Below are positions 22,101 to 61,992 of a stretch of DNA of 63,999 bases, piece by piece. This stretch comes from a virus (taxonomy: Duplodnaviria; Caudoviricetes), in the IMG/VR virus record IMGVR_UViG_3300030101_003107, positions 1 to 63,999 of that record. One strand, written 5' to 3'. A model generated the notes under the pieces. The model worked only from the letters and a program-made list of their open reading frames with translations, searched no databases and was not told where the DNA came from. Made by a program: the position numbers and the translations under genes. Position 1 is the stretch's first letter. Each line of letters begins with the position of its first letter.

Positions 22101-25100
22101 TTTCATTTATTTCTTGATTAACATAGGTGTAAAGTCCTACTTCAAGATTAACTTTTATATCAGAAGAAGATATAATTTCGTTATTAAAATCAAGTACTGT
22201 TTCTACTAAGTTGTAGTCTTTTAAGTAATTACCATAAACAACTCTATTAGCAGTAACTTCTTGTGCTTTAGCTGATTTTGGCACAGAGTCAAAAGGTCTT
22301 AATATTTGATTAGGATCTATTGTTAAACCTAAAGTATTAGCATTAAAAGGATGTAAGCCTGTATAAGATCCGTTTGCTGGTAAATTATATTCACCATCTC
22401 TAAAATCATATTTTTTTACAGCATATATATTATTTGCTTCTTCACTTTTAACTACCAACTCTACAGCTTTTACATCATGTGGTAAATTTTTTGGTGTCCA
22501 GTCTATTAATCTTAAATCTTTTATTTCATTAATTAAAGATATGTAATAGTTTGGCCAATCTATTTTTTGATTTAAAGTTCTCCAAATAACTGTAGTAAAA
22601 GGCGCAAAGCCAGAGTATTCGTTGTCTTCGTATTGATACCTGTAAGAAAATCTTAACATAGCTTCTCGTAAAGACTTTTCATCAGCTAATCTGCCTGCGC
22701 TGCTACCTTCATATTGAGAAGCTAAACTAACAGACCAAACTTGAGGAAGAGGTGGACCATAAAATTTTGGATTACCTTGAGAGTCAACTAGCAAACCATC
22801 GCGGCCCCAATTTTGATTAGTAGTCCAATAAGGTGATCTTCTGCCTTTGTAATCTTTAGGTAACATTGCTGCGTTTTTAGTACTGTCACCTTCTCCAATA
22901 ATAATAGGGCCTTCATCGCCTGGTCTTACATACTTATTGCTTAAATCAACTCTTAACGATGGATCTAAAGGATCTTTAGCGTTGTTTTCATCTATTTGAA
23001 TAGTAATAATATATTGGCTAATAAAATGCTCTGTAGAGAAAAAACTTGGCGGTAAGTCTACTACTGTACCGTCATCTAATACTATTTCTTCTCCACCAGG
23101 ATCAGTGCCATCAATTATAGTTTGATCAACTAACCCATCATTTAAAAATATAAATTTATCTTTTAAATCAGTATAAACATTACCAAGGTTATCAGTGAAA
23201 CCTACATTGTTAGGAACACCATTTATAACTGCACCAGCTCCTGCTGGGCCTTCAGGCCGCATGTTTACATGCTCTATTTTTGTTATTGTAGCTTTTACTA
23301 AATCAGCAAACCCGTCGTGTCTTCTGCCTGCAAACCGTGTACTATTTAAAAAATTAGCTCCTAGTGGATTTGCAGGGCTATTGAAACTAAGCTCTTGAGT
23401 ATCTCCAAAGTCTTGCCCACCTTGATTGTCTATTGTCCAAAGATCTTCATCTACAAAACCTCCTGTTTCTTCTAAAACCGAAGCAGGTGTGAAAAAGCTA
23501 TTGTCGTCTTCATCTGTATAATAAACATCAGTATATCTACCAACTGCGTTACTTCTTCTAGTATTACCTTGACCTTCTAATACAATTTTGTCACCAACAC
23601 TAAATCCATGAGGTTGAACTACAAATCTTCCAGGCCCTGTAGGTCTATATAAATTATTTTCGTTTAAATCAATTCTACCATTATGCACAAAATCAGCCAT
23701 TGGACCATCGTCAGGATCTCCACCTAAACCCCAATATTCGCTAATAGCAGCTAAATTTTGCGAAGGGCCTGATATATTAGCTTGTGAAAAAAGACCACCT
23801 AAATGATAAGCTTTAGCTATACCGTGCTGATTTGCATAAATAGGTGGGGCAACATCACCATCAAGAAGATACCCTCCAGGCATTTGATTTGTGTAGTGTA
23901 TAACATCACCTTCTGATCCAGCGTTACCACCAAAAGAACTGCCAGGACTAAAAGATACTAGCACGTTTTCATTTACAGAGTTAGCACCTACACCTCTAGT
24001 ACCACCTGCGCCTGAATAATTTTCCCAATAAAACGGCTCTAACGCTTGATTAAAGACACCATCATCTTCAGTAATTCCTGAAGCCATACGCATTGGACCA
24101 ACTGGAATAATATGTCCATCAGTTGGATCATTAAAAAAACCAAAAAGTGGTCCAAGCTCTTGGTAAGAGTCCATACCAGCGTTTAAATAATTTTTAAACA
24201 ATGGGTAAGGCGCTGATGGTTGTGAGTTTGCTTGTACATTTTCAGCTATAGCAGTTGGAAAAACTAAAGACTCTATAGTATATCCGCGTGGATCGTCTTG
24301 ATTAAAAATGTTAGCTGGAACACCAAAAAATCCATTGCCAGCTCCCATTGGATCTAGCGCGCCAGTTCCTGGGGCAGCAGTACCGTAAATACTTCCTCTA
24401 GATGCTTTTACATAAGCGCCCCAAGATAAAGTGTCAGGAATATCAAGAGTCATGCTGTTTCTAAAGTCCATAGCTTGGTTGCCATTTACATCAGCATACG
24501 GAATAAAAGATCTGAAGTTATAATAAGTATCAGGGCCTAAGCCTACTAACGGCTCACCCAGTCCATCGTTAGTAATTAATCCACCGGCTTCGTTATAAAA
24601 ACCAGCTTCGTTTAAAAATGCAACTGCAAACTGTAATGTTTTACCACTTGCGTGGTTTGGATGTATAGGAAAAGGATGCGTCATAACACCTTTAGTTGGA
24701 CCAACTGTTTTAACGTCTGAGTCGCCAACCACAGCACCCACATCAGTTAACACTTTTAAATGCTCTTCTGGATTTGGTCTTATAACAGTACAGTGAGACT
24801 CTATAGTTCCACCTAGCCCTGTATTTATAGCATTGTTTGCTATAACAGCGTTATCGTGATACCCGTTAAACTGCCAACCAGGAACACCTTGAAAGCCTAA
24901 ATTGTTATCAGAGTTTTCTCTTAATAATCTAGTATGAAAAAGTCTTCTATCTGTAAGCCAGTCTGGATATACCGACTGTTGATCAGATAAAGTACCTACT
25001 TTAGATCTATTTATTTGTATTTTTTTAGGTTCGTTTTTATTATCTGTAAAAAATATTAAACCATCAAATACATTTATACCTGTTATATATCTTGAGTAAT

Positions 25101-26709
25101 CAAAATCTAATATTCTTTTAGATACAAAAGCAAAGAAAAAATTATCCTCATCAAGAGCTATGTCATCAGGAATAACTACATTATCTGCAAATCGATTAAA
25201 ATCATCTTTTATGTATACTCTGTAGTTAACTCTATCAACATAGTCAACATAAAAAGCATCTATTAAAGTATTTATACCAGCACCTTCAGTTAAAGAATTA
25301 GAAACAGCAAAATCAGTGCCTACTATTGTGTCATACTGAAGAATACGCATGTCCTCTCTAATGTCTAAGTCACGCATATTCAAACCATCGTCAGGAAGTT
25401 GTATGTATGTTCCTAATTCATTCATGGGCTGGCCTATGAAAACAGCTGGAGTTCTTATTTCATAAACATCGTTAAAAACTAAATCCATGTCTCCATGGCC
25501 ATTGTTTTCTTCTGATATTCGCTGCATAGCTCTATTAGGCTCATACTCGTATATAGCGTCAGCTCTAACAACAATGCCTCTAGCGCCAAAAGATTCTGGA
25601 TCAAGATCTTCTATAGCATCAATACCACCGCTAAAAAATTGTCGAGTATCTTCTCTAAATTGATCTATATGAGTAAAAGGATCGTGTTCACCCGTCAAAT
25701 TATCTGTTAAGTGATTCCATGTTCCAGGAATTGCAGTAATTAAAGCTTGATCTACAGTACCTCTATTAGGACCTGTTAACTCAATAAGATTACCATCTTC
25801 TCCAGCGGTAGGTTGAATTATTGTTACAGAGCTTCCGTCTAATTCAACGTTAACTCCTATGCTACTTAGAGCATTATAAAAGTTTGTTGCTTTTCCTTCT
25901 GCTGAAGCTGCTGAAGCTACATTTATAGTTACTAGCTCTCCTGCTTCATCAAAAATATGTCCATTAGGAAATGATATGTTAGTATAACTATAAGGAAAAA
26001 GCGGATTAGCTTGTGCTTCAGTTGTAAAAGCGCCATAAACAATAGTTATTTGACTAAAACCGCTAGATGTTGCGTTGTTTAACGTAAACCTCATTTGAGG
26101 ACATCCACCAATTGTTCCTGCGTCCCAAGGTCCTGAGCCATCAATTTGATAATCTGGATTACCTATTGCGGCTTCCCACCAGTTGCTGCTAAGTTGACTA
26201 CCAAAATCACTTGGACCTACTGGTCCTTCGTTTATCCAGCCAGGTTCGTTTGATTCAATATTTTCGTTATGTAATCCATATCTACGCGCAACTGCGTAAT
26301 CATAAAGAGGGCTTATGCCTACGTAATTATTAAAATTAATTGTAAATCTTGCTCTTTCACCAAAGCCTTCACCTTCTAGTCTAAAGGCATTAACATAAGC
26401 TGAGTCTTTAACGAAATGATAAGCATAATCATTTGTTCTATCTACAGCTGTACCTACTACTCTAGGTTGAGTAAAACCTACTCTTCTAGGGCCAAAAGTG
26501 TTTAGCTCTCCATCTCCTTGATGTCTCCATCTATCTTGAGCAATAACTTTAGTATTTGCTCTAACAGTTTCTAACGAACCTTCGTTTCCTTCTGAAGAAC
26601 TACTAACCCGTATGTTTATAGCTTCACGATATAAACCTTGACCTACTAGCCTCTCATCAAGGTCAAGATTCATTCCACCTTTAATAAAAGTTCTTTTTAA
26701 TTCAGCCAT
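19162..26709 (-). CDS. Tail stabilization / nozzle (muzzle-type) protein with large insertions
   Basis: GGMNLDLDERL, FFTDNKNEPKKI, RFSYRYQYEDNEYS, NRVVYGNY, RSYQVGIVYRDEFGRETPVL, YGISNNPESFA, FKNKENKW: motifs recalled for the P22-gp10-like tail protein of Bacteroidota podoviruses and crAss-like phages. Confidence 0.8.
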   Translation of the reverse strand: MAELKRTFIKGGMNLDLDERLVGQGLYREAINIRVSSSSEGNEGSLETVRANTKVIAQDRWRHQGDGELNTFGPRRVGFTQPRVVGTAVDRTNDYAYHFVKDSAYVNAFRLEGEGFGERARFTINFNNYVGISPLYDYAVARRYGLHNENIESNEPGWINEGPVGPSDFGSQLSSNWWEAAIGNPDYQIDGSGPWDAGTIGGCPQMRFTLNNATSSGFSQITIVYGAFTTEAQANPLFPYSYTNISFPNGHIFDEAGELVTINVASAASAEGKATNFYNALSSIGVNVELDGSSVTIIQPTAGEDGNLIELTGPNRGTVDQALITAIPGTWNHLTDNLTGEHDPFTHIDQFREDTRQFFSGGIDAIEDLDPESFGARGIVVRADAIYEYEPNRAMQRISEENNGHGDMDLVFNDVYEIRTPAVFIGQPMNELGTYIQLPDDGLNMRDLDIREDMRILQYDTIVGTDFAVSNSLTEGAGINTLIDAFYVDYVDRVNYRVYIKDDFNRFADNVVIPDDIALDEDNFFFAFVSKRILDFDYSRYITGINVFDGLIFFTDNKNEPKKIQINRSKVGTLSDQQSVYPDWLTDRRLFHTRLLRENSDNNLGFQGVPGWQFNGYHDNAVIANNAINTGLGGTIESHCTVIRPNPEEHLKVLTDVGAVVGDSDVKTVGPTKGVMTHPFPIHPNHASGKTLQFAVAFLNEAGFYNEAGGLITNDGLGEPLVGLGPDTYYNFRSFIPYADVNGNQAMDFRNSMTLDIPDTLSWGAYVKASRGSIYGTAAPGTGALDPMGAGNGFFGVPANIFNQDDPRGYTIESLVFPTAIAENVQANSQPSAPYPLFKNYLNAGMDSYQELGPLFGFFNDPTDGHIIPVGPMRMASGITEDDGVFNQALEPFYWENYSGAGGTRGVGANSVNENVLVSFSPGSSFGGNAGSEGDVIHYTNQMPGGYLLDGDVAPPIYANQHGIAKAYHLGGLFSQANISGPSQNLAAISEYWGLGGDPDDGPMADFVHNGRIDLNENNLYRPTGPGRFVVQPHGFSVGDKIVLEGQGNTRRSNAVGRYTDVYYTDEDDNSFFTPASVLEETGGFVDEDLWTIDNQGGQDFGDTQELSFNSPANPLGANFLNSTRFAGRRHDGFADLVKATITKIEHVNMRPEGPAGAGAVINGVPNNVGFTDNLGNVYTDLKDKFIFLNDGLVDQTIIDGTDPGGEEIVLDDGTVVDLPPSFFSTEHFISQYIITIQIDENNAKDPLDPSLRVDLSNKYVRPGDEGPIIIGEGDSTKNAAMLPKDYKGRRSPYWTTNQNWGRDGLLVDSQGNPKFYGPPLPQVWSVSLASQYEGSSAGRLADEKSLREAMLRFSYRYQYEDNEYSGFAPFTTVIWRTLNQKIDWPNYYISLINEIKDLRLIDWTPKNLPHDVKAVELVVKSEEANNIYAVKKYDFRDGEYNLPANGSYTGLHPFNANTLGLTIDPNQILRPFDSVPKSAKAQEVTANRVVYGNYLKDYNLVETVLDFNNEIISSSDIKVNLEVGLYTYVNQEINEILGPDGNPIIIGASSDDGAIEVFEEAFAGTNPNFGVPQESIKSYRSYQVGIVYRDEFGRETPVLTNRQAIIKVSPEDSKKTQRISVIVKNPHPTWAKSYKFFVKDTSLDYNVLPLEEIRHFINVDGEDDASVEAQASSLTEKTNSVLIFSSDHRNKVQEGDILIQKRAHRKSGQPDPDLSNVTNNYESDNLNLEYEVQRIRNEVPEALIDALDDDPNVFEGKFFVYVKTDRPLVVNNDVGPLPGPNTAKTQGVFETLPKPNYDTDLYYEASQAYPIVLDDETDEQFIKVGRMVEAYYYTALIPGPGGALGLNSVVQVGDTTFPLLYTSDNDGDGGVSILDDIDLTPITVTSVSTNVGRHNINDALYTTITLSQPVTITVPANPDQLVLKIQEHRGGRLNVGEHVYVTVAESVVNSDTILVKRHTHLSNFSLVNDVVTPIALPYYNCFCFGNGIEISTVKNSFNGARIQKGVKASSIYEDYAEIKVGEGLIFSGIYNSYSGFNETNQFIEALGITKRFNPDHGFIQKLYSRANDLIVLCEDKVLKVLSQKDAIFKADGNPDLLATDKVLGQSVAFDGEYGISNNPESFAQYGFRSYFTDAKRGVVIRLSKDGMTIISDQGMDSYFKNQLSDARDQNSYIFGSYDIDKNEYLLSCRNFDLTDIEDEIFGYLTIAWDESLNAWTSFRTYYKDAQGYSLKNQYFSISSEHYHHDNVVAKYGFYEGYFQSEPSSQEPRIALVYNEMPGTVKDFTYTNYEGTQARIISNNNDGVLSTNLNKDGWWISRITTDLEQGMSINFKNKENKWHNNLMHVNIDDKQGDTLSTDSEDFQKYIAPLGIPTSIVENSDGSLGFTISFDLGIINMAVIQEGVNVRVMRTTVGDNPTVIPPSETVGQFVNLGSVVSFDSTSITTNVSTPELFEALGPIVDDYNVDISSILLVLTQNPVEHSGVKGYYARCVWRNNDFENKSELFAAALNAVESSK

Positions 26710-44220: not shown

Positions 44221-45114
44221 TTAAAATCTTGCTTTAGGCTTTTTAGGCGATTTAGGCGTTTTAGGCTTATTTACATTCATAGTAGGCTTTGGTGTTTTAG
44301 GAACCATACTACTGTGTGGCACTGCTGTTACAGTCTTACCGCTTAATGTAGCTTTAAGAACTTTGCCAGCTTCTTTTAAGTTTGCTAATGAAAAATATTT
44401 ATCTTTACCGTTTTTCATAGGAGTTTTCATTTTCATAGCTTCATCTTTCTTCATCTTCATAGCCTCACCTTTCTTCATTTTCATTGGCTTTTCTTTTAAC
44501 TTCATAGCCGGATCTTTTTTCATAGGCTTAGCAGATTTACCACCTTCACGACTGATAGGCGTTCTATAGTTAGTCTCAGGGTCCATCTCTACCTGATTAT
44601 ACTTTTTGCCTTCAAAAGGCTTGTAAGCCATGTCGTGACCTGGGTTTTTTCTGTTAAACTCATTTCTCTTTTTTATGTAATCTTTGTACGCAGTTGTTTT
44701 AGAGTATTTATAATGAGGCTTGCTAGTATCAAGTTCAGCAATAACCTTACTTTTTTTCTTTTTCCCTTCGTCATCTTTCATAGGAGTTTTCTCTTCTTTC
44801 ATCTTCATCGGCTCCTTCATCTTCATCGCTTTTTCTTCTTTCATCTTCATAGTAGACTTAAGCTTCATAGCTTTTTCTTTCATTTTGTCAGGAGAGCTGC
44901 CAGATTTAACAGAAGCTGTAGCAGACTTAATAGACTCTGTTGTATTGCCATCACCGTCTACATCTGGAAAGTCAGGCATAGCTTTTTTCTTCATTGCAGC
45001 TTCTTCTTTAAGCTTCATAGCTTTCTCTGCTTTCATTTTTTTAGCAGACTCAACTGCCATTTTCATAGGTTTAGTTCCGCCGATCATTGGGAACCCTTTC
45101 ATTTTAAATGCCAT
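44221..45114 (-). CDS. Lys/Met-rich repeat protein with MAFKMKGF leader
   Basis: About 13 [PA]MK units; DVDGDGNTTE loop; first gene of the late arm. Confidence 0.8.
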   Translation of the reverse strand: MAFKMKGFPMIGGTKPMKMAVESAKKMKAEKAMKLKEEAAMKKKAMPDFPDVDGDGNTTESIKSATASVKSGSSPDKMKEKAMKLKSTMKMKEEKAMKMKEPMKMKEEKTPMKDDEGKKKKSKVIAELDTSKPHYKYSKTTAYKDYIKKRNEFNRKNPGHDMAYKPFEGKKYNQVEMDPETNYRTPISREGGKSAKPMKKDPAMKLKEKPMKMKKGEAMKMKKDEAMKMKTPMKNGKDKYFSLANLKEAGKVLKATLSGKTVTAVPHSSMVPKTPKPTMNVNKPKTPKSPKKPKARF

Positions 45115-45150
45115 TGTTTATATTTTTTTTAGTTATAACGTTATAAAATA

Positions 45151-45159
45151 GTAATCACA
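45151..45159 (-). promoter_or_regulatory. Candidate late promoter box TGTGATTAC at the head of the minus arm
   Basis: Variant of the TGTAATAAT box, 36 nt upstream of ATG 45114. Confidence 0.4.
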
Positions 45160-45326
45160 TATTTTATAGTATTATAAATATTGAAGTAAAGTGTAGCCCC
45201 ACCTATATACTCGTACTTACTCTGTAGAAAATTGTTTGTAGTTTACCTAGGCCCCCTATTTTATTTTTATATGTGTAAAAGTTTTTGCGTTTTTACATTT
45301 TACATATTACTATACTATACTTTTTT

Positions 45327-45356
45327 ACAGACTAGTTACGACATGTATTGGATAAT
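45327..45356 (+). promoter_or_regulatory. Early promoter motif, copy 1
   Basis: ACAGACTAGTTACGA-catgtat-TGGATAAT. Confidence 0.8.
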
Positions 45357-45394
45357 ATATATGTAAATAAAATATAAACTTAAACTAAATTATT

Positions 45395-45625
45395 ATGTCA
45401 CAAGAAACATTAACTAAAAAAAGATTTGTAATATCAAAGTCACTAATCGGTAAAAATGTATTAATTACTTTTACAAATAAAAAAGGTGAAACATATACAT
45501 ATGACCACGACGCAGTATACAGTGCAAATCAAGAAAAGTTTGAAACAATGAATTGTTTTCAAAAGTACGGAAATTATACTAATAGTAATAATGTACCAAC
45601 ATTCGGTCGTAAGTTCACAGTGTAA
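45395..45625 (+). CDS. Early hypothetical protein
   Basis: First ORF of the plus arm, after motif copy 1. Confidence 0.75.
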   Translation: MSQETLTKKRFVISKSLIGKNVLITFTNKKGETYTYDHDAVYSANQEKFETMNCFQKYGNYTNSNNVPTFGRKFTV

Positions 45626-45627
45626 AA

Positions 45628-45678
45628 ACTGTGACACTTGCCACCTACTATACTTTACTTAACAACCTAATGTCACAC
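45628..45678. promoter_or_regulatory. Spaced inverted repeat TGTGACA-N34-TGTCACA (operator or origin-like), copy 1
   Basis: Arms at 45630-45636 and 45671-45677; similar element at 52470-52519. Confidence 0.6.
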
Positions 45679-45817
45679 TATTATGATACATGATTTAATA
45701 ATACTAATAACACTCGGAATAATTTTACAATATATTGAAAAGTTAATTGTAGAAAAAGAGAGTGAGCGGAATAACTCTTAACTAAATTTATTAACTAAAC
45801 AAAGTAACTACTTTTAT

Positions 45818-45847
45818 ACAAACTAAATACGACTCAAGTTGGATAAT
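45818..45847 (+). promoter_or_regulatory. Early promoter motif, copy 2
   Basis: ACAAACTAAATACGA-ctcaagt-TGGATAAT. Confidence 0.85.
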
Positions 45848-45875
45848 AATAATGTAAATAATAAATAATAATAAT

Positions 45876-46052
45876 ATGACTGAAAAAGAATACCTTGAAA
45901 GAGATAAACTCGCACTTGAACTAATGGAAAAGTTAGACAAAAAGTATAACATGAACAATATAATTTCACTTGATGAATATGTATATGAATACTTTAATTT
46001 ACTAACAGAAAATGAAAAAACTAAATGTTTTGAAATAATTGAAATTAACTAA
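45876..46052 (+). CDS. Small early protein (58 aa, not in ORF track)
   Basis: MTEKEYLERDKLALELMEKLDKKY... follows motif copy 2. Confidence 0.65.
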   Translation: MTEKEYLERDKLALELMEKLDKKYNMNNIISLDEYVYEYFNLLTENEKTKCFEIIEIN

Positions 46053-46066
46053 TAAAATAATATACT

Positions 46067-46291
46067 ATGTCAAACTTTAAATCAGACTCATCAACTAATA
46101 TAATTAAATTAAATAACCAAACTTATATTCCATTTCAACTTCACCAATTACCGAAGTACTATAATGAAATACCTTTATCAGAACAATTTAATTTAAAAGG
46201 TTACTGTTATATAAACTTAACTTCTTTAAAATCTCACAACAAAGATATTCATACTTTAAATAGAGACTTAGACTATACTCAAAGAAGATAA
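46067..46291 (+). CDS. Early hypothetical protein
   Basis: ORF with A-rich leader. Confidence 0.65.
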   Translation: MSNFKSDSSTNIIKLNNQTYIPFQLHQLPKYYNEIPLSEQFNLKGYCYINLTSLKSHNKDIHTLNRDLDYTQRR

Positions 46292-46320
46292 CAAAATAAA
46301 TACGACTTAAACTGGATAAT
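46291..46320 (+). promoter_or_regulatory. Early promoter motif, copy 3
   Basis: ACAAAATAAATACGA-cttaaac-TGGATAAT. Confidence 0.85.
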
Positions 46321-46347
46321 ATAGATGAACTTAATAAAATAAATAAT

Positions 46348-46542
46348 ATGTCAAAGAAAATAATTAATAAGGTAGTAGATGAAACAGTAGATACAATAAT
46401 AGATAAAATAGATGAAGTACTAGTAGACTATATGTTTGACTATGGTAACTATGAAGAAACAGATAACAAGTTCTTTGATGATAAAGAAGAAATGTTTGTA
46501 CAGGTAATAAAAGAATTAAATAATAGAATAAATAATAAGTGA
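46348..46542 (+). CDS. Small acidic early protein
   Basis: Follows motif copy 3. Confidence 0.7.
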   Translation: MSKKIINKVVDETVDTIIDKIDEVLVDYMFDYGNYEETDNKFFDDKEEMFVQVIKELNNRINNK

Positions 46543-46543
46543 T

Positions 46544-46657
46544 ATGAAAGTAACTAATAAAATAACAGGTGAAGACATAACTAAATATGTTATCGGTTTA
46601 CTAGAAGGTTTAATTACTCAAGATGAGTTTGAAGAACTAACTATGTTAACAAAATAA
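46544..46657 (+). CDS. Small early protein (37 aa, not in ORF track)
   Basis: MKVTNKITGEDITKYVIGLLEGLITQDEFEELTMLTK fills the gap. Confidence 0.6.
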   Translation: MKVTNKITGEDITKYVIGLLEGLITQDEFEELTMLTK

Positions 46658-46678
46658 ATACGATTACTAATGGATAAT
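46649..46678 (+). promoter_or_regulatory. Early promoter motif, copy 4
   Basis: ACAAAATAAATACGA-ttactaa-TGGATAAT. Confidence 0.85.
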
Positions 46679-46687
46679 AATAATGAT

Positions 46688-46879
46688 ATGAAAATTAAAT
46701 TAAAAGAACTAGAGGCACTACTAATCAGTCACGACTGGTACTATATGATGAGTGATGATAACCGTTGGTATAAACAAGGTAGAAAATCATTTGAATTAAT
46801 AACTAAACTAATGTTTGAGTTGAAAGACGGTGGTTACTATACCGAAGCAAATAACTTATACGATAAATACAGTAAATAA
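46688..46879 (+). CDS. Early protein with HDWYYxMSDD motif
   Basis: Start moved from 46670 (inside the promoter motif) to ATG 46688; HDWYY..SDD recalled from small phage proteins. Confidence 0.7.
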   Translation: MKIKLKELEALLISHDWYYMMSDDNRWYKQGRKSFELITKLMFELKDGGYYTEANNLYDKYSK

Positions 46880-46880
46880 T

Positions 46881-47165
46881 ATGAAGAGAATTAAATTAAC
46901 AGTACTAACATTACTACTAGGTGGTATATGTTACGGTCAAACTCAAGTAAAAGACGACGCGTTAACTAAAAAAATGGCGTACATTGAATCAGTGAATACT
47001 ATTCAAGATATAATAGAGTGGATGAAGTCAGATATAGACAATGAAGTAATCGACAAAGATTACGGTGAAACGTACATAGAAAACTTAGTAGGTTTATTAT
47101 CAAGACTAGAAGATATTAATGCAGGTTACGTATTCGACTGCGAAAACTGCGATGAAATAGATTAA
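46881..47165 (+). CDS. Exported early protein
   Basis: From ATG 46881: signal peptide MKRIKLTVLTLLLGGICYG|Q; C-terminal CENC. Confidence 0.7.
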   Translation: MKRIKLTVLTLLLGGICYGQTQVKDDALTKKMAYIESVNTIQDIIEWMKSDIDNEVIDKDYGETYIENLVGLLSRLEDINAGYVFDCENCDEID

Positions 47166-47166
47166 T

Positions 47167-47373
47167 ATGACAATAACTATAAAACAAATCGGCAAAACTT
47201 ACAAGGTAAGTAACGATAATACAGTAGAAGTAACTCATGACCATGACGCGGTAGTGTCTGTATGTGGTGAATACTATAAAAACAAATACACAGGCGAGTG
47301 GTTAAGTGAGTTAGAAGCTGAGCAAGCAATGATAGATAAATACGAAGAAGATGAATCAAATAAGTACTACTAA
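47167..47373 (+). CDS. Early hypothetical protein
   Basis: Operon packing. Confidence 0.65.
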   Translation: MTITIKQIGKTYKVSNDNTVEVTHDHDAVVSVCGEYYKNKYTGEWLSELEAEQAMIDKYEEDESNKYY

Positions 47374-47433
47374 TGTTTGAGTGGGCATGGGTAATATGTG
47401 CCTGTTGGTACTTAGGAAATATAATATATAGAT

Positions 47434-47913
47434 ATGATAAAAAATAAATTTATAGCGTCAGCAGTAGTAGCTACTCTTGCGCTAACATCTTGCGAAAAAA
47501 CTGACTATGATGTTCAGTTTGACAGAGATACTCATGTAAAAATCATGAGCGATAACAGTGTAAGCACTTACGCAGTGTCAACTTGTACTGGTAACGATAC
47601 TAGTTTTGTAGTTGATTTTGGTGTTGCTATGTGTATAAATGTAGCAAACCTGCCTGGTATTGACGACGTTCGCTACGATGAGTATGAGTTCTATGCTATG
47701 CTTGATGGCAGAAAAGTAAAAGGTTTTCAAAACCTAAAAGACCAAGTTAGTAATCTAGCGCAAGGTATAATTGAAGGAAATATTAACATGCAACTTTCAG
47801 GTCATGACGACTTAGCTGTGTACTTATTACACGAAAATATGTATAAAGCTCAGTTCTTTGTAGAGAACGGTGATGGTCAAATCTTTGAGTTACAACTAAA
47901 AGAAGTTTACTAA
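47434..47913 (+). CDS. Lipoprotein
   Basis: MIKNKFIASAVVATLALTS|C lipobox followed by EKTDYD. Confidence 0.8.
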   Translation: MIKNKFIASAVVATLALTSCEKTDYDVQFDRDTHVKIMSDNSVSTYAVSTCTGNDTSFVVDFGVAMCINVANLPGIDDVRYDEYEFYAMLDGRKVKGFQNLKDQVSNLAQGIIEGNINMQLSGHDDLAVYLLHENMYKAQFFVENGDGQIFELQLKEVY

Positions 47914-48290
47914 TGAAAAAAATAACACTATCAGTTGCTCTACTATTAGGTAGTTTAGCGGCTAAAGCACAGACAGAATATATAGATATTACTAGTAAAA
48001 AACCGTTTGGCAGAAGTGAGATGGTGCTTTACAATGATGACACTAATTATTACGATTTAGAATACTTTTATTTAAGTAGATTTACTAAAAACTACCACTG
48101 GGTAAAGTATACTGACGCTAATAAAATTATTTTATCACTAAATGACGACAAAGGTGATAAGCGAGAAATATGTACTAAGCAAGATACTTTTAAAGTTTAC
48201 TGTCAAGTATATGATTCTTTTGCACAGCAATTGAAAATAAATGTATCAACTAAAGTATTTCAAGTATGGATTTCAAAACCTTTAAAATAA
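47913..48290 (+). CDS. Exported protein
   Basis: Signal peptide MKKITLSVALLLGSLAAKA|Q. Confidence 0.8.
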   Translation: MKKITLSVALLLGSLAAKAQTEYIDITSKKPFGRSEMVLYNDDTNYYDLEYFYLSRFTKNYHWVKYTDANKIILSLNDDKGDKREICTKQDTFKVYCQVYDSFAQQLKINVSTKVFQVWISKPLK

Positions 48291-48295
48291 TAATT

Positions 48296-48397
48296 ATGAG
48301 AAAATTTTCACACACAGATATAGTAATAGTAGCTGTTCCGGCTATACTTATTGCTTTAATAGTATTTAACATTATTACTGTTGGTATTCAATTTTAA
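48296..48397 (+). CDS. 33-aa single-TM peptide (not in ORF track)
   Basis: MRKFSHTDIVIVAVPAILIALIVFNIITVGIQF. Confidence 0.6.
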   Translation: MRKFSHTDIVIVAVPAILIALIVFNIITVGIQF

Positions 48398-48398
48398 T

Positions 48399-48428
48399 AC
48401 AAATTAAATACGATTACTATTGGATAAT
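48399..48428 (+). promoter_or_regulatory. Early promoter motif, copy 5
   Basis: ACAAATTAAATACGA-ttactat-TGGATAAT. Confidence 0.85.
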
Positions 48429-48452
48429 ATATATGACAAAAGCTTATTAAAT

Positions 48453-48668
48453 ATGAATAAATATTGTAAATGTGGTGAGCCCGTACACCCAGTTAGACAA
48501 AAATACGGGTACAAAACATGTGTTAAATGTAGTAATGTAGAGCGTGTCGCATCGGCACCTATTACTAATCATAAAACAGGTAACACAATACAAATAGTAT
48601 CACAGGCAATGTCTGTTGCTATACACAAGGCGAGTAGGCGTAAAGGCTACGGTACTTGTCTTAGATAA
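48453..48668 (+). CDS. C4 zinc-finger protein (TraR/DksA-finger-like)
   Basis: CKCGEPVHPVRQKYGYKTCVKC; start moved to ATG 48453. Confidence 0.65.
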   Translation: MNKYCKCGEPVHPVRQKYGYKTCVKCSNVERVASAPITNHKTGNTIQIVSQAMSVAIHKASRRKGYGTCLR

Positions 48669-48671
48669 TAT

Positions 48672-48745
48672 ACGAGGAGTGAAGTTGGAAGTTAGCGCAT
48701 AAATCTGCAAGACAGTAGCCCACTAACTCAAACACTTCACCTCGT
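48672..48745 (+). ncRNA. Structured element A (long hairpin)
   Basis: ACGAG/CTCGT, GTGAAGT/ACTTCAC and AGTTAG/CTAACT nested pairings, followed by TTT. Confidence 0.6.
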
Positions 48746-48752
48746 TTTATAT

Positions 48753-48841
48753 ACGAGCGTGGCGCGTGAGACGTGTTCAGTAAAATGGAACTAACAGGTG
48801 AGGCCCCAGCCTGACTGTTCTTACTCACTTGGCCACCTCGT
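48753..48841 (+). ncRNA. Structured element B
   Basis: ACGAG/CTCGT, GTGGC/GCCAC, GTGAG/CTCAC, AACAG/CTGTT, AGGC/GCCT; same ends as element A. Confidence 0.6.
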
Positions 48842-48850
48842 TTTACAATT

Positions 48851-48921
48851 GACTGGTAGTGTTAGTCTCACGTAGCATCTATCGCGAGAAGCTAAAGACA
48901 TTGCTCGCAGGCTAGTCACCA
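48851..48921 (+). ncRNA. Structured element C with acceptor-like stem and ACCA 3' end
   Basis: GACTGGT/GCTAGTC 7-bp stem + A + CCA; internal TCTCaCG/CGcGAGA helix. Confidence 0.5.
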
Positions 48922-48923
48922 AA

Positions 48924-48973
48924 CAGCTAGGTATTGGCAATACAGGTTTGAGGTTCGATTCCTCACTAGCTAC
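48924..48973 (+). ncRNA. D-armless tRNA-like element D
   Basis: AGCTAG/CTAGCT stem, short GTATTGGCAATAC hairpin, AGGTT variable-like segment, canonical T-arm TGAGG-TTCGATT-CCTCA. Confidence 0.7.
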
Positions 48974-48988
48974 TAAAATTAAATAACT

Positions 48989-49174
48989 ATGAATATAATA
49001 ACAGTATTAGATTACGAAAGCGGTAAAGTATGGCAGTATAAAGTAGATGCAGTCGAGTATGTTCAGGTCGAAACCATTGAAGAAATACTTCAAGAACAAG
49101 GACATAAGCTAGAAGACATCGACTATATGATACACGCAGACGAAACTATTAACAAAATTAAAATTGAATTATGA
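48989..49174 (+). CDS. Hypothetical protein
   Basis: ORF with A-rich leader. Confidence 0.7.
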   Translation: MNIITVLDYESGKVWQYKVDAVEYVQVETIEEILQEQGHKLEDIDYMIHADETINKIKIEL

Positions 49175-49237
49175 GCAGATTAAAACCATTAACTAAGCCA
49201 AAAGGTATATTTTTGGTAACAAACCCAGGAAAATAAT

Positions 49238-49777
49238 ATGGAATACATGTCAACAGAAATTAGAAGTGCGCGCGAAGCAATGACTGTCTTTAAGATACTA
49301 GGTATCAAAGACGTCACTACAGATCGCCAACGTAAAAACGGTACACAAGTATTTGAGTTACCAATACAACAAATGTATCAAAGCTTAATACCAAAACCTT
49401 TACGTTTTGCTACTTACAAAGCAGGTTATGTTAGAAATGTAAGTGAGTACAACTCAAGTCCTTACCAAATTAACAAAACGAAAAAACGACCAGCAGGCAA
49501 AGGTTATCACTTTGAAACGGTTGAGCGTATACTTATTCCAAATTGGGAAGAGCGATTGATATACTTAGCTAAGTTTATTATCAAGAACTACTATAAAAAG
49601 CCTACATACTTAATTAACGACTATGTTATTAAGTGTTTGAAAGAAGCTTATTTTAGAGACTATAACAATAATCCTAACAATAGACTACCATTTGGCGATA
49701 TTGTTCACCCAGACTCTTCGCCAGTAGATGATATACAAGTAATTATTAACGGGCATAGGTATAACCTTACAAATTAA
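49238..49777 (+). CDS. Hypothetical protein
   Basis: 179-aa ORF; function not recognised. Confidence 0.7.
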   Translation: MEYMSTEIRSAREAMTVFKILGIKDVTTDRQRKNGTQVFELPIQQMYQSLIPKPLRFATYKAGYVRNVSEYNSSPYQINKTKKRPAGKGYHFETVERILIPNWEERLIYLAKFIIKNYYKKPTYLINDYVIKCLKEAYFRDYNNNPNNRLPFGDIVHPDSSPVDDIQVIINGHRYNLTN

Positions 49778-49798
49778 ATACGAATACTAACGGATAAT
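49769..49798 (+). promoter_or_regulatory. Early promoter motif, copy 6
   Basis: ACAAATTAAATACGA-atactaa-CGGATAAT. Confidence 0.85.
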
Positions 49799-49824
49799 AT
49801 TATAAACCAATTAAATAAACCATT

Positions 49825-50196
49825 ATGACAAAAACAGAATTACAAGCAAAGATAGAAGCTTTGCAAACAGCTCTTGAAACTAAAGCGCAAGAGCAAAACG
49901 CATATCAAGGTCAAATTGATACACTTAAAAAACAACTAGAAGACTTAAACAAACCAAAGCTTACTGGTCTTCAGTTCGATAAGTTACATGAAGCTATTGA
50001 AGAAGGTATTGGTAGTTACGATTTTAGTGATACTGATTGTTATAGTATTGACTACGGTATTGACTACGATGGCAGAGTACATTGCGAATCATTTGACTTT
50101 GAAAACGCTGATGACTTAGCTCATGAAATATACGAACAAGTAGCACGTTTATTTGCTGAAGCAGATGAAGATAATAACCAAGAAAACCAAGATTAA
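49825..50196 (+). CDS. Coiled-coil + acidic hypothetical protein
   Basis: N-terminal heptads, acidic C-terminal half. Confidence 0.7.
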   Translation: MTKTELQAKIEALQTALETKAQEQNAYQGQIDTLKKQLEDLNKPKLTGLQFDKLHEAIEEGIGSYDFSDTDCYSIDYGIDYDGRVHCESFDFENADDLAHEIYEQVARLFAEADEDNNQENQD

Positions 50197-50197
50197 C

Positions 50198-50431
50198 ATG
50201 AAAACATTATATAACAGTTTAAAGCCAGAGTACATAGAAGCGCTTGAATCTCATGCAGAGAAATATCCTGCGTCAGTTAGAGCTATTAAAAAAGCACTAA
50301 AAAATAACTCGCTATGGTCACGTTTAACAGTACAACAAGTTAGAGACTTTATAACTTTTTCAGACAATGTAGTGTTTGAAACTAGTTATCAAGACTGGGC
50401 TTTTGGCACTAAATTTTTACAAAATGAATAG
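50198..50431 (+). CDS. Hypothetical protein
   Basis: Likely start MKTLYNSLKPE at ATG 50198, directly after the upstream stop. Confidence 0.65.
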   Translation: MKTLYNSLKPEYIEALESHAEKYPASVRAIKKALKNNSLWSRLTVQQVRDFITFSDNVVFETSYQDWAFGTKFLQNE

Positions 50432-50541
50432 TGAGTTATGCGAAGATTAATATACGACATGTACTACGCTGAAGAGATTACTCCGGACGTAGCCGCAAGA
50501 TTATTAAATAAATTAGAAGAATTAAGAAATAAAAAAAGAAG

Positions 50542-50814
50542 ATGACAGGACAAGAAGTAGAAAATTATATTAAAAACGAGCTTGGTCATGAGCCAAGACA
50601 CGATGTATATGCTATAGCAGATGCAGCAGATGAGCTAGCATATTTATATAGTAATAGTACAACAGCTAAACAAATTGTTGAGTTTATGTTAGCAGACAAA
50701 CCAATACCAACACTTTATACTCATAGCTATGGCTTTCATACGCGTAGCGGTAGAGGTTTACGAGAATTATTTACAGAAAATTATAACAGTTACGTAAGAA
50801 ACAATGGCGACTAG
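50542..50814 (+). CDS. Hypothetical protein
   Basis: Operon packing. Confidence 0.65.
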   Translation: MTGQEVENYIKNELGHEPRHDVYAIADAADELAYLYSNSTTAKQIVEFMLADKPIPTLYTHSYGFHTRSGRGLRELFTENYNSYVRNNGD

Positions 50815-51289
50815 AGCATTAATATGTTTTGCTAAACGTGAAGATAAAGTATCGTTTAGCGATTTTAAACTATACGACGACTGTGGTAGGCAAAGAGTCA
50901 CACACCAAATATATCACCACTATGATGGCGCGCCTAGCTTTTTAGGTGTTGCGTTAGCAGAATTTATTGATAATGTCGGTGATAAACACAACGGTATACA
51001 CTGTTTTGCAGCACAGCTGTTAACACACTTAAAAATGGGTGTACATTACGGTAAATGTAGTAACGATTCACATAACGTGTACCTAGAAACACCAGGCGTT
51101 GAGCACGGTGATCTTGACTATACATATTATTTATGGTGGGGTAAAGGCGAAGTATGGATAAGTATATTTAAAGTTGGTTTTAATTATAACTTAGATCCGC
51201 TATACGATGACAGAGATAAATGTATATTCGTAGGTAAGCCAAGTAATCTTATAGATAAATACAAACTAAATACGAACTCTGATGGATAA
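50804..51289 (+). CDS. Conserved phage protein (MxTR...YxHYDGxP family)
   Basis: MATRA, IYHHYDGAPSFLG, HGDLDYTY motifs recalled from many phages; function unknown. Confidence 0.7.
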   Translation: MATRALICFAKREDKVSFSDFKLYDDCGRQRVTHQIYHHYDGAPSFLGVALAEFIDNVGDKHNGIHCFAAQLLTHLKMGVHYGKCSNDSHNVYLETPGVEHGDLDYTYYLWWGKGEVWISIFKVGFNYNLDPLYDDRDKCIFVGKPSNLIDKYKLNTNSDG

Positions 51290-51290
51290 T
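51261..51290 (+). promoter_or_regulatory. Early promoter motif, copy 7
   Basis: ACAAACTAAATACGA-actctga-TGGATAAT. Confidence 0.85.
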
Positions 51291-51548
51291 ATGAACGACA
51301 AACAAATGCAAAAGCTAGCTAAATATATAGCAGCAGATCTTACTAAAAGAATTTATGGTATCGCAAACCCTGCTACTGAAGATAATGATATGATGTGGTA
51401 TGCAGACAGAGACGATGACCACGCTGTTGGTGAGTTAGCTAGGCTAATGACACTATTAAATCTATATCAAGACAGAGAAGAATATGAAAAGTGCCATTTA
51501 ATAAACAAGCACATTAAAAAATTAGAAAAAATAATAGAAAACTTATGA
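51291..51548 (+). CDS. Small protein with UVR-like C-terminal hairpin
   Basis: YQDREEYEKCHLI resembles the UvrB/C motif; start uncertain (51291 or 51306). Confidence 0.6.
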   Translation: MNDKQMQKLAKYIAADLTKRIYGIANPATEDNDMMWYADRDDDHAVGELARLMTLLNLYQDREEYEKCHLINKHIKKLEKIIENL

Positions 51549-52417: not shown

Positions 52418-52469
52418 TAAATTAAAACTAAAAATTCAACACATGTTGAAAACATTAAAACCAATTGAG

Positions 52470-52519
52470 ACTGTGACAACAGCCTCTAATAAATAACTAA
52501 TAACAGGCTAATGTCATAC
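52470..52519. promoter_or_regulatory. Spaced inverted repeat TGTGACA-N33-TGTCATA, copy 2, overlapping the ATG of the HTH gene
   Basis: TGACAacAGCCT...AGGCTaaTGTCA; aligns with 45628-45678. Confidence 0.6.
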
Positions 52520-53131
52520 GAGAGAAACCTAACATACCTAAATAATAAACGTTTAATATACAGGCGACATCCAGTATCAGATAAACCAGACATTGATACT
52601 AAAGAGTTTATGTATTTTGAAAACGGTACGCATCAATGCTACGAGCTATTTAGATCAACAGCAAAGATTACTACGTATCGTTCGCTTAAATGGCATTTAC
52701 TAGTACTTTGGTATTTAAACCCTAACCTCAACCAAGACGACTTTATACAACTAGCTGAATATATAGTACACAAGCCAAATGGCTTTGTAAGTTTTAACGT
52801 ATCAGAACGTTTGCTAGAAAAAGTTGTCTACGAGGTTAGCATGTCTGACCTTGATCGTCCACCTAAAAATAAATTACGTAAAGTTATATTTAAACCGTTT
52901 AGTGGCTTAACAAAAGAAATGAAATTATCTATTGTAGGCCAGCTAGTTGGTCAAAGTCCTAGAGTTTGTTCTGACGACATATATGAAGTTATGATAGATA
53001 TGCATGACATGGGCAAAAAGATTACAATAGGACGTATCGCAGGTCTGTTAGACTGTTCGTCACGTACAATATATAGACACATGTGTAACGAACTTAAAAA
53101 AGAAAAAGAATTACTTAACCAACAACTATGA
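52511..53131 (+). CDS. DNA-binding protein with C-terminal HTH (possible initiator or regulator)
   Basis: ITIGRIAGLLDCSSRTIYRHM helix-turn-helix. Confidence 0.75.
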   Translation: MSYERNLTYLNNKRLIYRRHPVSDKPDIDTKEFMYFENGTHQCYELFRSTAKITTYRSLKWHLLVLWYLNPNLNQDDFIQLAEYIVHKPNGFVSFNVSERLLEKVVYEVSMSDLDRPPKNKLRKVIFKPFSGLTKEMKLSIVGQLVGQSPRVCSDDIYEVMIDMHDMGKKITIGRIAGLLDCSSRTIYRHMCNELKKEKELLNQQL

Positions 53132-53880
53132 AACAATACGATTCAAATAATTTTAGCAGGTATAAAAAAGATGTTAAAGCATCTCAACCTAAAAATAAAG
53201 ACTGGCAACACTATAGTAGAGATGAACTTATAGTTAAATTTCTACCTCTTGTAGAAAATATAGCTAGAAAGTTTAATGATGGTGATGCTGCATCTGGCGT
53301 TATGTCGTTAAGTGATTGTATACAATTTGGTAATATTGGACTAACTAAAGCTGTTGATAAAATTATTTGGTCAACAATAACTGAGTCTAAAGATCCTGAA
53401 AGAACTATAAAATCTTATTTATCTAAAAGAATACGAGGCGCAATACGTAGAGCCACAGACGCTAATCGTAGTGGCATGCGTATACCAGAACATAAACTAA
53501 ATGATATACGTAAAAACTTTGAAAATGAAGATAATTCAAAGTTATTTTTTAACTCTATGTTTGAAAGTATAGACAAACAGTTAGACGATGAAAACTCTTA
53601 TTTATATCAAATCGAAGATACTTCAAAAGATCCAATGAGAAAAGAAAAGTTACACGCTGTAATAAGAGATATTATGCTTAAGCATTTAACTGACAAAGAA
53701 TATCATGTTATAAGACTAAGCTATGGTTTAGGTTGTGATAAAATATCTGCAAAACAAATAGCAGAAAAACTTGATATGAAAGGTAGTAGCTCTTATGTTC
53801 GTGTTTCTCAATTAAAAAAGCAAGCGATTGAAAAACTTAGAAATGTTTTAGATCACTCGCAAGTGACTGATTATCTGTAA
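53128..53880 (+). CDS. Sigma70-family RNA polymerase sigma factor (group-3-like)
   Basis: Region 2 RDELIVKFLPLVENIARKF...DCIQFGNIGLTKAVDK...RIRGAI; MRIP; region 4 LTDKEYHVIRLSYGL...IAEKL...RVSQLKKQAIEKLR. Confidence 0.92.
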   Translation: MKQYDSNNFSRYKKDVKASQPKNKDWQHYSRDELIVKFLPLVENIARKFNDGDAASGVMSLSDCIQFGNIGLTKAVDKIIWSTITESKDPERTIKSYLSKRIRGAIRRATDANRSGMRIPEHKLNDIRKNFENEDNSKLFFNSMFESIDKQLDDENSYLYQIEDTSKDPMRKEKLHAVIRDIMLKHLTDKEYHVIRLSYGLGCDKISAKQIAEKLDMKGSSSYVRVSQLKKQAIEKLRNVLDHSQVTDYL

Positions 53881-53907
53881 GTTACTCATTAAATATTAAC
53901 TGTTATA

Positions 53908-53916
53908 TGTAATTAT
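53908..53916 (+). promoter_or_regulatory. Candidate promoter box TGTAATTAT upstream of the replication operon
   Basis: In the gap after the sigma gene; variant of the late box. Confidence 0.45.
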
Positions 53917-53941
53917 ATATATACACTAAACCAATATACCG

Positions 53942-55215: not shown

Positions 55216-55219
55216 ACCA

Positions 55220-55696: not shown

Positions 55697-55699
55697 TAA

Positions 55700-57678: not shown

Positions 57679-57782
57679 TTATAAAACAATAGCAATGAGC
57701 CGCAATGGCAAAACTAAAATACTTACTAAGCGTATTAGTACTTTAGGTTTAAAATCATGGTATAATATTAAAGGCGAAATTT

Positions 57783-60115: not shown

Positions 60116-60122
60116 AAATAAT

Positions 60123-61976: not shown

Positions 61977-61992
61977 TTAAATTTTATTTACT

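Follow-up and report, generated by a model that had tools for sequence, protein, structure and literature searches.

What are seven near-identical sequences doing in front of the small genes of a phage, and which factor, if any, reads them? The question is raised by the viral record IMGVR_UViG_3300030101_003107 (Duplodnaviria; Caudoviricetes), whose positions 1 to 63,999 we analysed as one stretch of DNA, hereafter the window, and in which a 30-bp motif recurs between positions 45327 and 51290. A preliminary description of this DNA had taken the copies for early promoters foreign to the host consensus, and had named a sigma-like segment of a virion protein, present before early expression, as the best candidate for their reader. 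We give a probability of about 60% to another answer, namely that the seven sites form a class of promoters dependent on a sigma factor encoded by the phage and that they double as recombination joints. The sequence pattern, its geometry, a phyletic link to a sigma gene, the absence of host-type promoters and a set of breakpoints at the sites are all observed, and from the sequence the best candidate for the reader is an ordinary sigma gene at 53128.

The pattern TACGA-N8-GGATAAT has exactly seven matches in the window, all on the plus strand (at 45337, 45828, 46301, 46659, 48409, 49779 and 51271), and none in 100 dinucleotide-preserving shuffles, so the seven plus-strand copies first reported between 45327 and 51290 are real. 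With up to two mismatches allowed, nine more matches appeared, each with two mismatches and scattered, against a shuffle mean of 5.5; since such matches are at chance level, there are no degenerate extra copies. The 47-nt repeat family that the motif forms is the first (D1) among the repeat families listed for the window. The 7-nt gap within the motif indeed varies without constraint from copy to copy. The upstream block ACAAA-N-TAAA, which had been ascribed to every copy, is found in six of the seven and fails in copy 1 (45327), which carries ACAGA-C-TAGT. Conservation also exceeds the limits originally drawn, with TT ahead of the motif and an A, an AT-rich stretch and a purine after it.

Related contigs carry the same pattern and sharpen its outline. 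A scan of IMG/VR for TAAATACGA-N7-YGGATAAT returned at least 201 loci on at least 113 contigs, mostly clustered and on a single strand; the 219 unique instances among the matches listed agree at positions that the pattern leaves unfixed, with TT before ACAAAC, an A after GGATAAT in 99%, an AT-rich run and then A or G. Additionally, 80 loci with relatives of the sigma gene were fetched, and 67 hand-chosen loci were scanned over 2.6-10 kb upstream of sigma with the loose two-block pattern [AG]CA[AG]A-N19-[GT]ATAAT. Of the sites it gave, 272 lie on the strand that encodes sigma and 2 on the opposite one; 64 of the 67 loci have at least one. At 5' positions not used for selection, the 246 unique sites show T-T/C before ACAAA, C at -31 and, from -30 to -22, TAAATACGA with 57-91% conservation; seven free positions then lead to T/C-G/A at -14 and -13, GATAAT at -12 to -7 and an A at -6 (98% of sites). 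A purine stands 7 nt past the hexamer in 96%, with G accounting for 40% there and for at most 6% at neighbouring positions, and all seven window copies likewise have a purine at this predicted +1.

The hexamer, with its A-11 and T-7, reads GATAAT in all seven window copies and G/T-ATAAT across lineages; as the 246-site set was chosen on the hexamer, support for it is independent only where it comes from the window and from the repeats found de novo in the locus L233. Eighteen base pairs ahead of it lies a -35-like element, ACAAAC or, in L233, GCAGAT, and the unselected flanks are conserved. Judged from these sequences, the motif is of sigma-70-family promoter geometry, comprising a -35 element ACAAAC (-36 to -31), an 18-nt spacer, a -10 element GATAAT and a predicted start site. 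It is promoter-like, as had been supposed, and TACGA falls near -26 to -22, the position at which it had been placed. The blocks change with the sigma lineage: the -10 element appears as TGGATAAT, cAGATAAT or TATATAAT, the -35 element as TTACAAAC, tCACAAAC or TTGCAGAT (the last in L233), and the middle block as TACGA, TACAA or nothing. If a conserved host sigma were the reader, the motif would not be expected to drift in this way between sigma lineages.

Each copy lies close upstream of a gene, as first noted, with an ATG-started open reading frame (ORF) on the same strand beginning 0-38 nt downstream. From the end of GGATAAT to the usable ATG the distances are 38, 28, 27, 9, 24, 26 and 15 nt for copies 1 to 7, where copies 4 and 7, which overlap possible start codons, are counted to the in-frame ATGs at 46688 and 51306. 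The deviant copy 1 (45325..45363, plus strand, as are all seven) reads ACAGA-C-TAGT-TACGA-N7-TGGATAAT; its predicted +1 is the G at 45363, and the next ORF runs from 45395. Copy 2 (45816..45854) has its predicted +1 at 45854 with ORF 45876-46052 downstream, and copy 3 (46289..46327) has it at 46327, followed by ORF 46348-46542. Copy 4 (46647..46685) would start at 46685, leaving a leader of 3 nt before the ATG at 46688, and copy 5 (48397..48435) at 48435, with an ORF whose ATG is at 48453. Copy 6 (49767..49805) has CGGATAAT, overlaps the stop codon of ORF 49238-49777, and is predicted to start at the A at 49805, ahead of ORF 49825-50196. The last, copy 7 (51259..51297), lies within the 3' end of ORF 50804-51289, has its predicted +1 at 51297 and heads a unit consisting of an 88-aa ORF, the ligase, a helix-turn-helix (HTH) protein, the sigma factor and the recombination and replication genes. 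The genes behind the sites are small ORFans of early-looking content, and we infer the 'early' timing of the cassettes from this gene content only.

One regularity at the predicted start deserves separate mention. In five of the seven copies the start purine is the G of an ATG located 5-7 nt after GATAAT (45361-45363, 45852-45854, 46325-46327, 46683-46685 and 48433-48435), and in copies 1, 2, 3 and 5 this ATG opens a mini-ORF of 1-5 codons. Across the clade, the share of G at the position is 40-42%.

The motif does not resemble the host signal. In the accessible part of PMC9723704, the Flavobacteriaceae sigma-A promoter is given as TTG at -33 and TAnnTTTG at -12 to -5, the start-site map of Flavobacterium psychrophilum resolves six promoter classes (three sigma-A variants, sigma-54, TAnnTTGY and an extracytoplasmic function (ECF) class), and the sigma set of that species comprises sigma-A, one sigma-54 and seven ECF factors, with no FliA. 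The phage motif has GATAATAT at -12 to -5 and CAAAC around -33, which bears out the original statement that it is unlike the Bacteroidota primary-sigma promoter, and none of the six classes resembles it. Host-type signals are used by related phages. The middle promoters of the Cellulophaga phage phi14:2, read from its genome, are of the TTG...TAnnTTTG type, and the relatives elemoF (L209) and MW202828.1 (L208), which lack the sigma gene, have 13 and 14 TAnnTTTG boxes per 42 kb when boxes upstream of an ORF and outside same-strand ORFs are counted; these are mostly TATCTTTG, several of them right after terminators in the structural block. The same count gives 3 boxes in the 64 kb of the window, and no conserved TAnnTTTG box was found ahead of sigma in the 7.8-10 kb upstream at 14 loci. 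Given this scarcity and the lack of a conserved box ahead of sigma, the clade appears to have abandoned host-type promoters.

The proposed reader is encoded at 53128..53880 on the plus strand, a sigma-70-family factor of 250 aa with the order sigma2-sigma3-sigma4. It scores 73.8 bits against TIGR02937 (cut-off 42.9) and, in Pfam, 30.7 bits for Sigma70_r4 (cut-off 24.1) and 20.9 for Sigma70_r2, the latter below its cut-off of 24. Its closest solved relative is FliA/sigma-28 (1rp3_A, E 1.1e-11, residues 23-240), and the predicted structure model matches sigma chains (Foldseek E 2e-6). The link between gene and motif is close: a first set of 5 motif-bearing IMG/VR contigs all have a homologue, as do 32 of another 35 of at least 55 kb (37 of 40 together), and in the three contigs without it the motifs lie within about 2.6 kb of a contig end. 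Conversely, in elemoF, MW202828.1 and phi14:2 neither the sigma profile (0 of 3) nor the exact motif gave a match, and relaxed motif matches numbered 0, 0 and 3, the last being chance level. A tblastn search of 50,697 phage records with the sigma found only four gut contigs, at 26-29% identity. In metagenomes, at least 7999 sigma clusters have E <=1e-5 among 8000 candidates scored, a sign of how common the clade is.

Putting these observations together, we propose that host core RNA polymerase carrying the phage FliA-like sigma (53128-53880) reads the seven sites; that transcription starts there, that the sigma is the reader and when the sites fire are what we infer. In this model TTACAAAC, with its centre near -35, would be the contact of sigma domain 4 and GATAAT at -12 to -7 that of domain 2, with TAAATACGA in the spacer (-30 to -22) as a possible additional contact, and transcription would begin at the conserved purine 7 nt on, at the seven positions listed above. 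One promoter would serve each cassette of 1-4 small ORFs, and the last would extend into the ligase, HTH, sigma and replication genes. Because this last promoter would read into sigma, the factor would reinforce its own synthesis.

The second half of the proposal concerns the joints. Since the same sequence of about 40 bp stands ahead of every cassette, it would offer a homology patch for cassette exchange and reordering among related phages. We compared window positions 45120-53100 with ten relatives by blastn; the relatives are not mutually independent. Of 113 internal ends of high-scoring segment pairs (HSPs), 27 fall no more than 10 nt from a motif copy, against 4.4% expected (binomial p 4e-13). 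In the comparison with L212, the closest relative, motif edges account for 5 of the 10 HSP ends. L212 also has segments 46035-46291 and 46291-46649 in swapped order, with copies 3 and 4 as the joints. The suggestion that the copies act as recombination points for shuffling cassettes therefore gains support from both the enriched breakpoints and the reordered pair.

Several considerations weigh against a phage sigma as the reader. All motif-bearing contigs belong to one clade, so the co-occurrence of sigma and motif is not phylogenetically independent, and the HTH gene and a second conserved element (see below) accompany the motif as faithfully as the sigma does. Column by column, sigma residues covary only weakly with motif variants. 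The strongest covariation pairs a change of residue 228 from Q to E, in the region-4.2 helix, with loss of CGA in the middle block, and this probably comes from a single clade and reflects one evolutionary event. Moreover, the sigma gene itself follows promoter 7, so that some sigma would have to be present beforehand, a supply for which the model does not account. Known phage-encoded sigmas serve middle or late genes, and an invariant block within the spacer is an abnormal contact for a sigma factor. No motif copy occurs in the structural block, and the match to sigma-28 promoters is partial, with GCC absent and the spacing off by 1. A look for RNA runs containing 45000-54000 found none.

The missing first supply of sigma is where a factor entering with the DNA would help, whether the 53128 sigma were packaged in the virion or one of the giant virion proteins had an activity that goes unrecognised, the sites then being read from the start of infection. 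The scarcity of TAnnTTTG boxes (3 in 64 kb against 13-14 in 42 kb in sigma-less relatives, and none conserved before sigma at 14 loci) fits this idea, as does a sigma gene placed behind its own presumed promoters; the virion module resembles the one in crAss-like phages, a group that ejects a virion polymerase, and the gene for a 2459-aa protein sits at the position of the cargo and polymerase genes of phi14:2. The sigma-like segment that had been expected in a virion protein was nevertheless not found by the sigma profile, by Pfam at E <=5 or by PDB sequence searches. A profile of 20 clade sequences, run with filters off on all six-frame ORFs of at least 40 aa, finds only 53119-53877 (E 1.7e-130), the next match having E 0.5. 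Both giants are encoded on the minus strand. The 2459-aa orphan of the virion module (9386..16765) reaches E 5.2 with this profile, and the 2515-aa virion protein (19162..26709), with a crAss-muzzle-like N-terminus and no sigma-like segment, is not listed up to E 50. In neither protein did Pfam give a sigma domain at E <=5, PHROGs gave no sigma- or polymerase-like match, and PDB chain sequences, presumably including 6VR4 (phi14:2 gp66), gave no match to either at E <=1.

The orphan carries an HExxH motif, an FDFDET (HAD-like) motif and a Cys-rich C-terminus, and at the sequence level no D-x-D-x-D and no sigma or RNA polymerase features were found in it; the 2515-aa protein contains one DNDGD. 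Searched by tblastn against the 50,697 phage records, the orphan had no match, and the atlas neighbours of its last 1499 residues are viral hypothetical proteins (0.96-0.98) and, weakly, Zeta-toxin fusion proteins (0.83-0.85); from its sequence it looks like a polyvalent ejected protein. The sigma gene, moreover, lies in the replication block and not in the virion block, we know of no packaged sigma factor, and a literature search found no packaged phage sigma. The early promoters of phi14:2 share no common motif as far as the available text of bioRxiv 10.1101/2020.03.07.982082 goes, which is a further point against delivery with the DNA. We therefore consider an injected factor unlikely; its remaining merit is that a phage without host-type promoters needs a starter.

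Reading by the host RNA polymerase alone, through a primary or an alternative sigma, would also solve the problem of the first transcript, with the phage sigma then serving the second element (GTGACA-N16-18-TATAGT) ahead of its own operon, and the leftward structural block. The early-looking small ORFans behind the sites suit this scheme, A-11 and T-7 are invariant in the motif, and a division in which the host transcribes early genes and a phage sigma late ones matches phiEco32 and 7-11 in the part of PMC8948821 available to us. The RNA polymerase of Cellulophaga is active on the T7 A1 promoter in vitro, according to the accessible portion of bioRxiv 10.1101/2020.03.07.982082, which puts E. 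coli-like -10 elements within its reach, so that weak recognition by the host enzyme would, by analogy, be another route to a first transcript. Against this stand the GATAATAT that replaces TAnnTTTG at -12 to -5, the absent TTG at -33, the variation of the motif between phage lineages where a conserved host sigma would read it, and the use of plain TATCTTTG boxes by the sigma-less relatives. The second element is no nearer to the host consensus, and its leftward copy meets the strict pattern in only 9 of 34 loci. Host genomes give no help either: for TTACAAAC-N16-TGGATAAT with at most 3 mismatches, three host-like genomes gave 75, 52 and 90 matches against 70, 44 and 62 for the reversed control, the one excess being an unrelated repeat, and the same genomes hold no close homologue of the phage sigma (best E 1.6e-4, a 287-aa protein). 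With no excess over control and no close sigma homologue, there is no sign of a host sigma using the motif, and unaided host transcription of the sites is in our view improbable.

The sites might instead be no promoters at all but recombination or cassette-boundary sequences, or operators, for instance for the 206-aa HTH protein. The 27 of 113 HSP ends at the sites, the two cassettes swapped in L212 and an invariant TACGA where sigma factors seldom read bases would all agree with that, yet a recombination site needs neither strand polarity (272 against 2) nor a purine at fixed distance nor an ORF downstream. DNA folding of the seven 52-nt site stretches gave 0 to -2.7 kcal/mol (z -0.84 to +0.93) and the motif is not palindromic, which counts against this reading and, as the sites do not fold, also speaks against hairpin promoters of the N4 type. 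Pfam on 44 ORFs found no recombinase. In any case the two roles are compatible, as in the early-promoter-stem-loop elements (PeSLs) of T4-type phages in the available text of PMC2839356 and PMC4122927, and we regard a purely non-promoter role as very unlikely. A T7-like promoter was also considered and dropped, since Pfam on the 44 ORFs and PHROGs found no T7-like polymerase gene at the sequence level and the positions before the start are variable; the seven positions ahead of the -10-like block vary, so that the continuous block up to the start typical of T7 is absent. In copy 2 a stretch of about 11 bases presumably coincides with the T7 promoter, a likeness that we do not use as support.

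A host regulon built on the motif was likewise rejected, since relaxed patterns show no excess over controls and most exact matches are phage contigs. The exact 30-nt pattern occurs at 17 loci in 185,579 species genomes, mostly on short or phage-like contigs binned into metagenome-assembled genomes (MAGs), and one 117-kb contig of this collection has the motif cluster twice, 62.6 kb apart. What remains are exact copies on chromosomal contigs of Flavobacteriales MAGs, at G006:C2:984324-984353 (L273), G007:C2:160150-160179 (L274) and G008:C1:4275-4304, in genomes without a close homologue of the phage sigma. They represent two independent places, one between recG and a TerB-domain gene and the other, common to two related MAGs, ahead of a small lipoprotein-like ORF on an island that also holds an integrase and a methylase. 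No homologue of the TerB-domain gene or of the small ORF was found among the related phage loci, and the chromosomal copies may mark cassettes captured from phages or host genes that have come to respond to the phage. A bolder and quite doubtful scenario would join several of these threads: the clade, lacking host-type promoters, would start infection with a virion-delivered sigma, perhaps with an HTH partner, capture the host core and fire the seven promoters, and the chromosomal copies would be host 'tripwires'. If true, a virion-delivered sigma would be a third launch mode beside host promoters and virion polymerases.

Judging by its sequence, the source is an uncultured crAss-related podophage of marine Flavobacteriales (Bacteroidota) hosts, with a GC content of 34%. 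A perfect 98-nt terminal repeat (bases 1-98 equal 63900-63997, unit length 63,899 nt) indicates a whole genome of about 63.9 kb, circular or terminally redundant. The only divergent intergenic region, at 45115..45394, separates a 45-kb structural block read leftward from the cassette and replication block read rightward. The leftward block extends from 45114, across the record origin, to 62201, and encodes a GroEL-like chaperonin, the large terminase, portal, capsid and virion proteins, together with the 2515-aa crAss-muzzle-like protein, the 2459-aa orphan and a protein with a type-IX-secretion sorting domain. The last of these, a 603-aa protein at 5065-6876 (minus strand), has internal repeats of 78-81 nt (family D2) and ends in Por_Secre_tail, the C-terminal sorting domain of type IX secretion; unusual in phage proteins and here within the structural block, it points to a Bacteroidota host.

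The rightward block (45395 to 62184) begins with about 18 small ORFs without family, continues with the ligase, the 206-aa HTH protein and the sigma-70-family protein, and closes with ERF recombinase, exonuclease, primase-helicase, thymidylate synthase, MazG and ribonucleotide reductase. The large terminase has 45% identity to that of the Flavobacterium 'elemo' phages and 65% to that of MW202828.1, and is also similar to those of Cellulophaga, Tenacibaculum and Maribacter phages; gene order resembles that of the crAss-like Cellulophaga phage phi14:2. At the sequence level no phage RNA polymerase gene was found by Pfam on the 44 ORFs of at least 140 aa, by PHROGs or by PDB sequence search. The DNA of the early region had no match in the 50,697 phage records, and Rfam and ARAGORN found nothing across the 63,999-nt window.

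The second conserved element mentioned above is an inverted repeat, GTGACAAnAGCC-N20-GGCTAATGTCA, present in the window in two copies of opposite orientation. Copy A (45630..45677, minus strand) reads GTGACA-18-TATAGT and begins 7 nt past the stop of ORF 45395-45625; copy B (52472..52518, plus strand) contains the ATG of the HTH gene and departs from the GTGACA-type reading. In one orientation, 25 of 31 copies have GTGACA, 16-19 nt and (T/A/G)A(T/A)AGT, with TATAAT in L230 and L233. By the strict pattern the copy ahead of sigma is intact in 15 of 18 loci, while L213 scores in the other orientation and L234 gives none, and in about 40 of 44 related loci this copy includes the ATG of the HTH gene. 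From its sequence the element may be another promoter class, an operator for the HTH protein, both, or an RNA hairpin. The HTH protein itself (52511..53131, plus strand, 206 aa) is conserved and has its helix-turn-helix at the C-terminus; relative to the start of the sigma match, the end of its ORF falls anywhere from 363 nt upstream to 13 nt downstream in 17 of 18 loci checked, and no more than 13 nt away in 11. In the predicted structure (predicted local distance difference test score, pLDDT, 78), only the last ~59 residues appear to match common HTH regulators (Z ~6, Foldseek E >1), and the model of the N-terminal 147 residues gave no clear fold match and no evidence of a new fold.

Two further stretches were noted in passing. 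On the minus strand of the divergent region, 45207-45245 reads ACAGAG-TAAG-TACGA followed by GTATATAGGTGGGGCT in the leftward direction, so that the upstream half of the seven-site motif is joined to a core resembling the second element's, one that L212 shares. A leftward 'late' promoter with a TATAG-N3-GGGGC core was not upheld, the strict pattern being found in only 9 of 34 loci. Between genes at 48669-48988 lies a GC-rich stretch of 320 nt. It contains a pair of long hairpins that both end in CCTCGTTTTA, a T run, as well as a tRNA-like acceptor and T-arm (GGTTCGATTCC), and relatives keep islands of it, 24-49 nt in length, at 83-100% identity. ARAGORN and Rfam gave nothing for this stretch, and the fold of 48669-48990 has a z of -1.0.

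If the phage-sigma-dependent reading is right, its interest is not confined to one genome, since the clade is large, common and marine, with at least 113 IMG/VR contigs bearing exact sites. It would provide a ready-made orthogonal pair of sigma and promoter for Flavobacteriia, in which standard genetic parts perform poorly, a clean test case for the first transcript in a phage without host-type promoters, and a second example, beyond T4-type phages, of promoters that double as joints for cassette shuffling. A few phages of Proteobacteria and Firmicutes are known to encode sigmas that have promoters of their own, and our literature search returned no description of this motif or of a sigma-dependent promoter class in Bacteroidota phages.

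Among known systems, flagellar sigma-28 is the relative that the sigma sequence itself suggests. Its consensus, in the accessible text of PMC2859248, is TAAAGTTT-n11-GCCGATAA; judged by this form, the two promoter types share the GATAA core, preceded by (T/C)AAA at 22 nt there and at 23 nt here, while GCC before GATAA is replaced here by nTG, nCA or nTA, the -35 TAAAG by ACAAAC with a spacing 1 nt longer, and the TAAATACGA block has no sigma-28 counterpart. A TAAA 15 nt before GCCGATAA, the sigma-28 arrangement, is thus not found; CAAA lies 1 nt farther away and the TAAA of the motif 4 nt closer. On sequence grounds the motif fits a FliA-like sigma with altered specificity, a resemblance and not class membership. 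With Bacteroidota sigma-A promoters the motif shares A-11 and T-7, and lacks the TTTG part and the TTG at -33.

The likeness to T4-type PeSLs lies in organisation. There, in the available text of PMC2839356 and PMC4122927, a repeated early promoter flanks small variable genes and marks where close relatives differ by an insertion, a deletion, a replacement or a changed order, and here too a repeated promoter-like sequence stands at cassette-exchange breakpoints. The stem-loop joined to the promoter is missing here, no fold having been found, and the sites are not host-type. In PeSLs, by comparison, an early promoter of host type is joined to a stem-loop terminator. Phage phi14:2 is related through its virion module (muzzle-like protein, GroEL and gene order), and, like that phage with its virion RNA polymerase gp66 and like coliphage N4, the present one must begin transcription without host-type promoters. 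Coliphage N4 does so with a virion RNA polymerase and hairpin promoters, whereas our sites do not fold. Unlike in phi14:2, no polymerase was found here by PDB sequence search, Pfam or PHROGs, and the 2459-aa protein has no DFDxD-type motif; the early promoters of that phage share no motif, in contrast to ours, as far as the accessible part of bioRxiv 10.1101/2020.03.07.982082 shows.

By analogy, the closest known systems are phiEco32 and Salmonella phage 7-11, podophages whose sigmas, gp36 (tAATGTAtA) and gp47 (GTAAtg-N16-aCTA), have promoter classes of their own in the available portion of PMC8948821. To the extent covered there, these phages and the present one alike combine a sigma-70-family gene of their own with 6-8 highly conserved promoters, here predicted, that do not look host-like; transcription begins 6-9 nt downstream in both of them and, as predicted from sequence alone, in ours, and 7-11 in particular shares a bipartite motif and a sigma that retains region 4. 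By the same account, their sites precede middle or late genes while host sigma-70 drives the early ones, whereas those of the present phage stand ahead of small ORFan cassettes and of the sigma operon, none is found before structural genes, the consensus is another and the host belongs to the Bacteroidota. Set beside these systems, the candidate promoter class of this phage is unusual in three traits: its location before early-type cassettes and the sigma operon, its third conserved block, and a genome without any recognisable host-type promoter.

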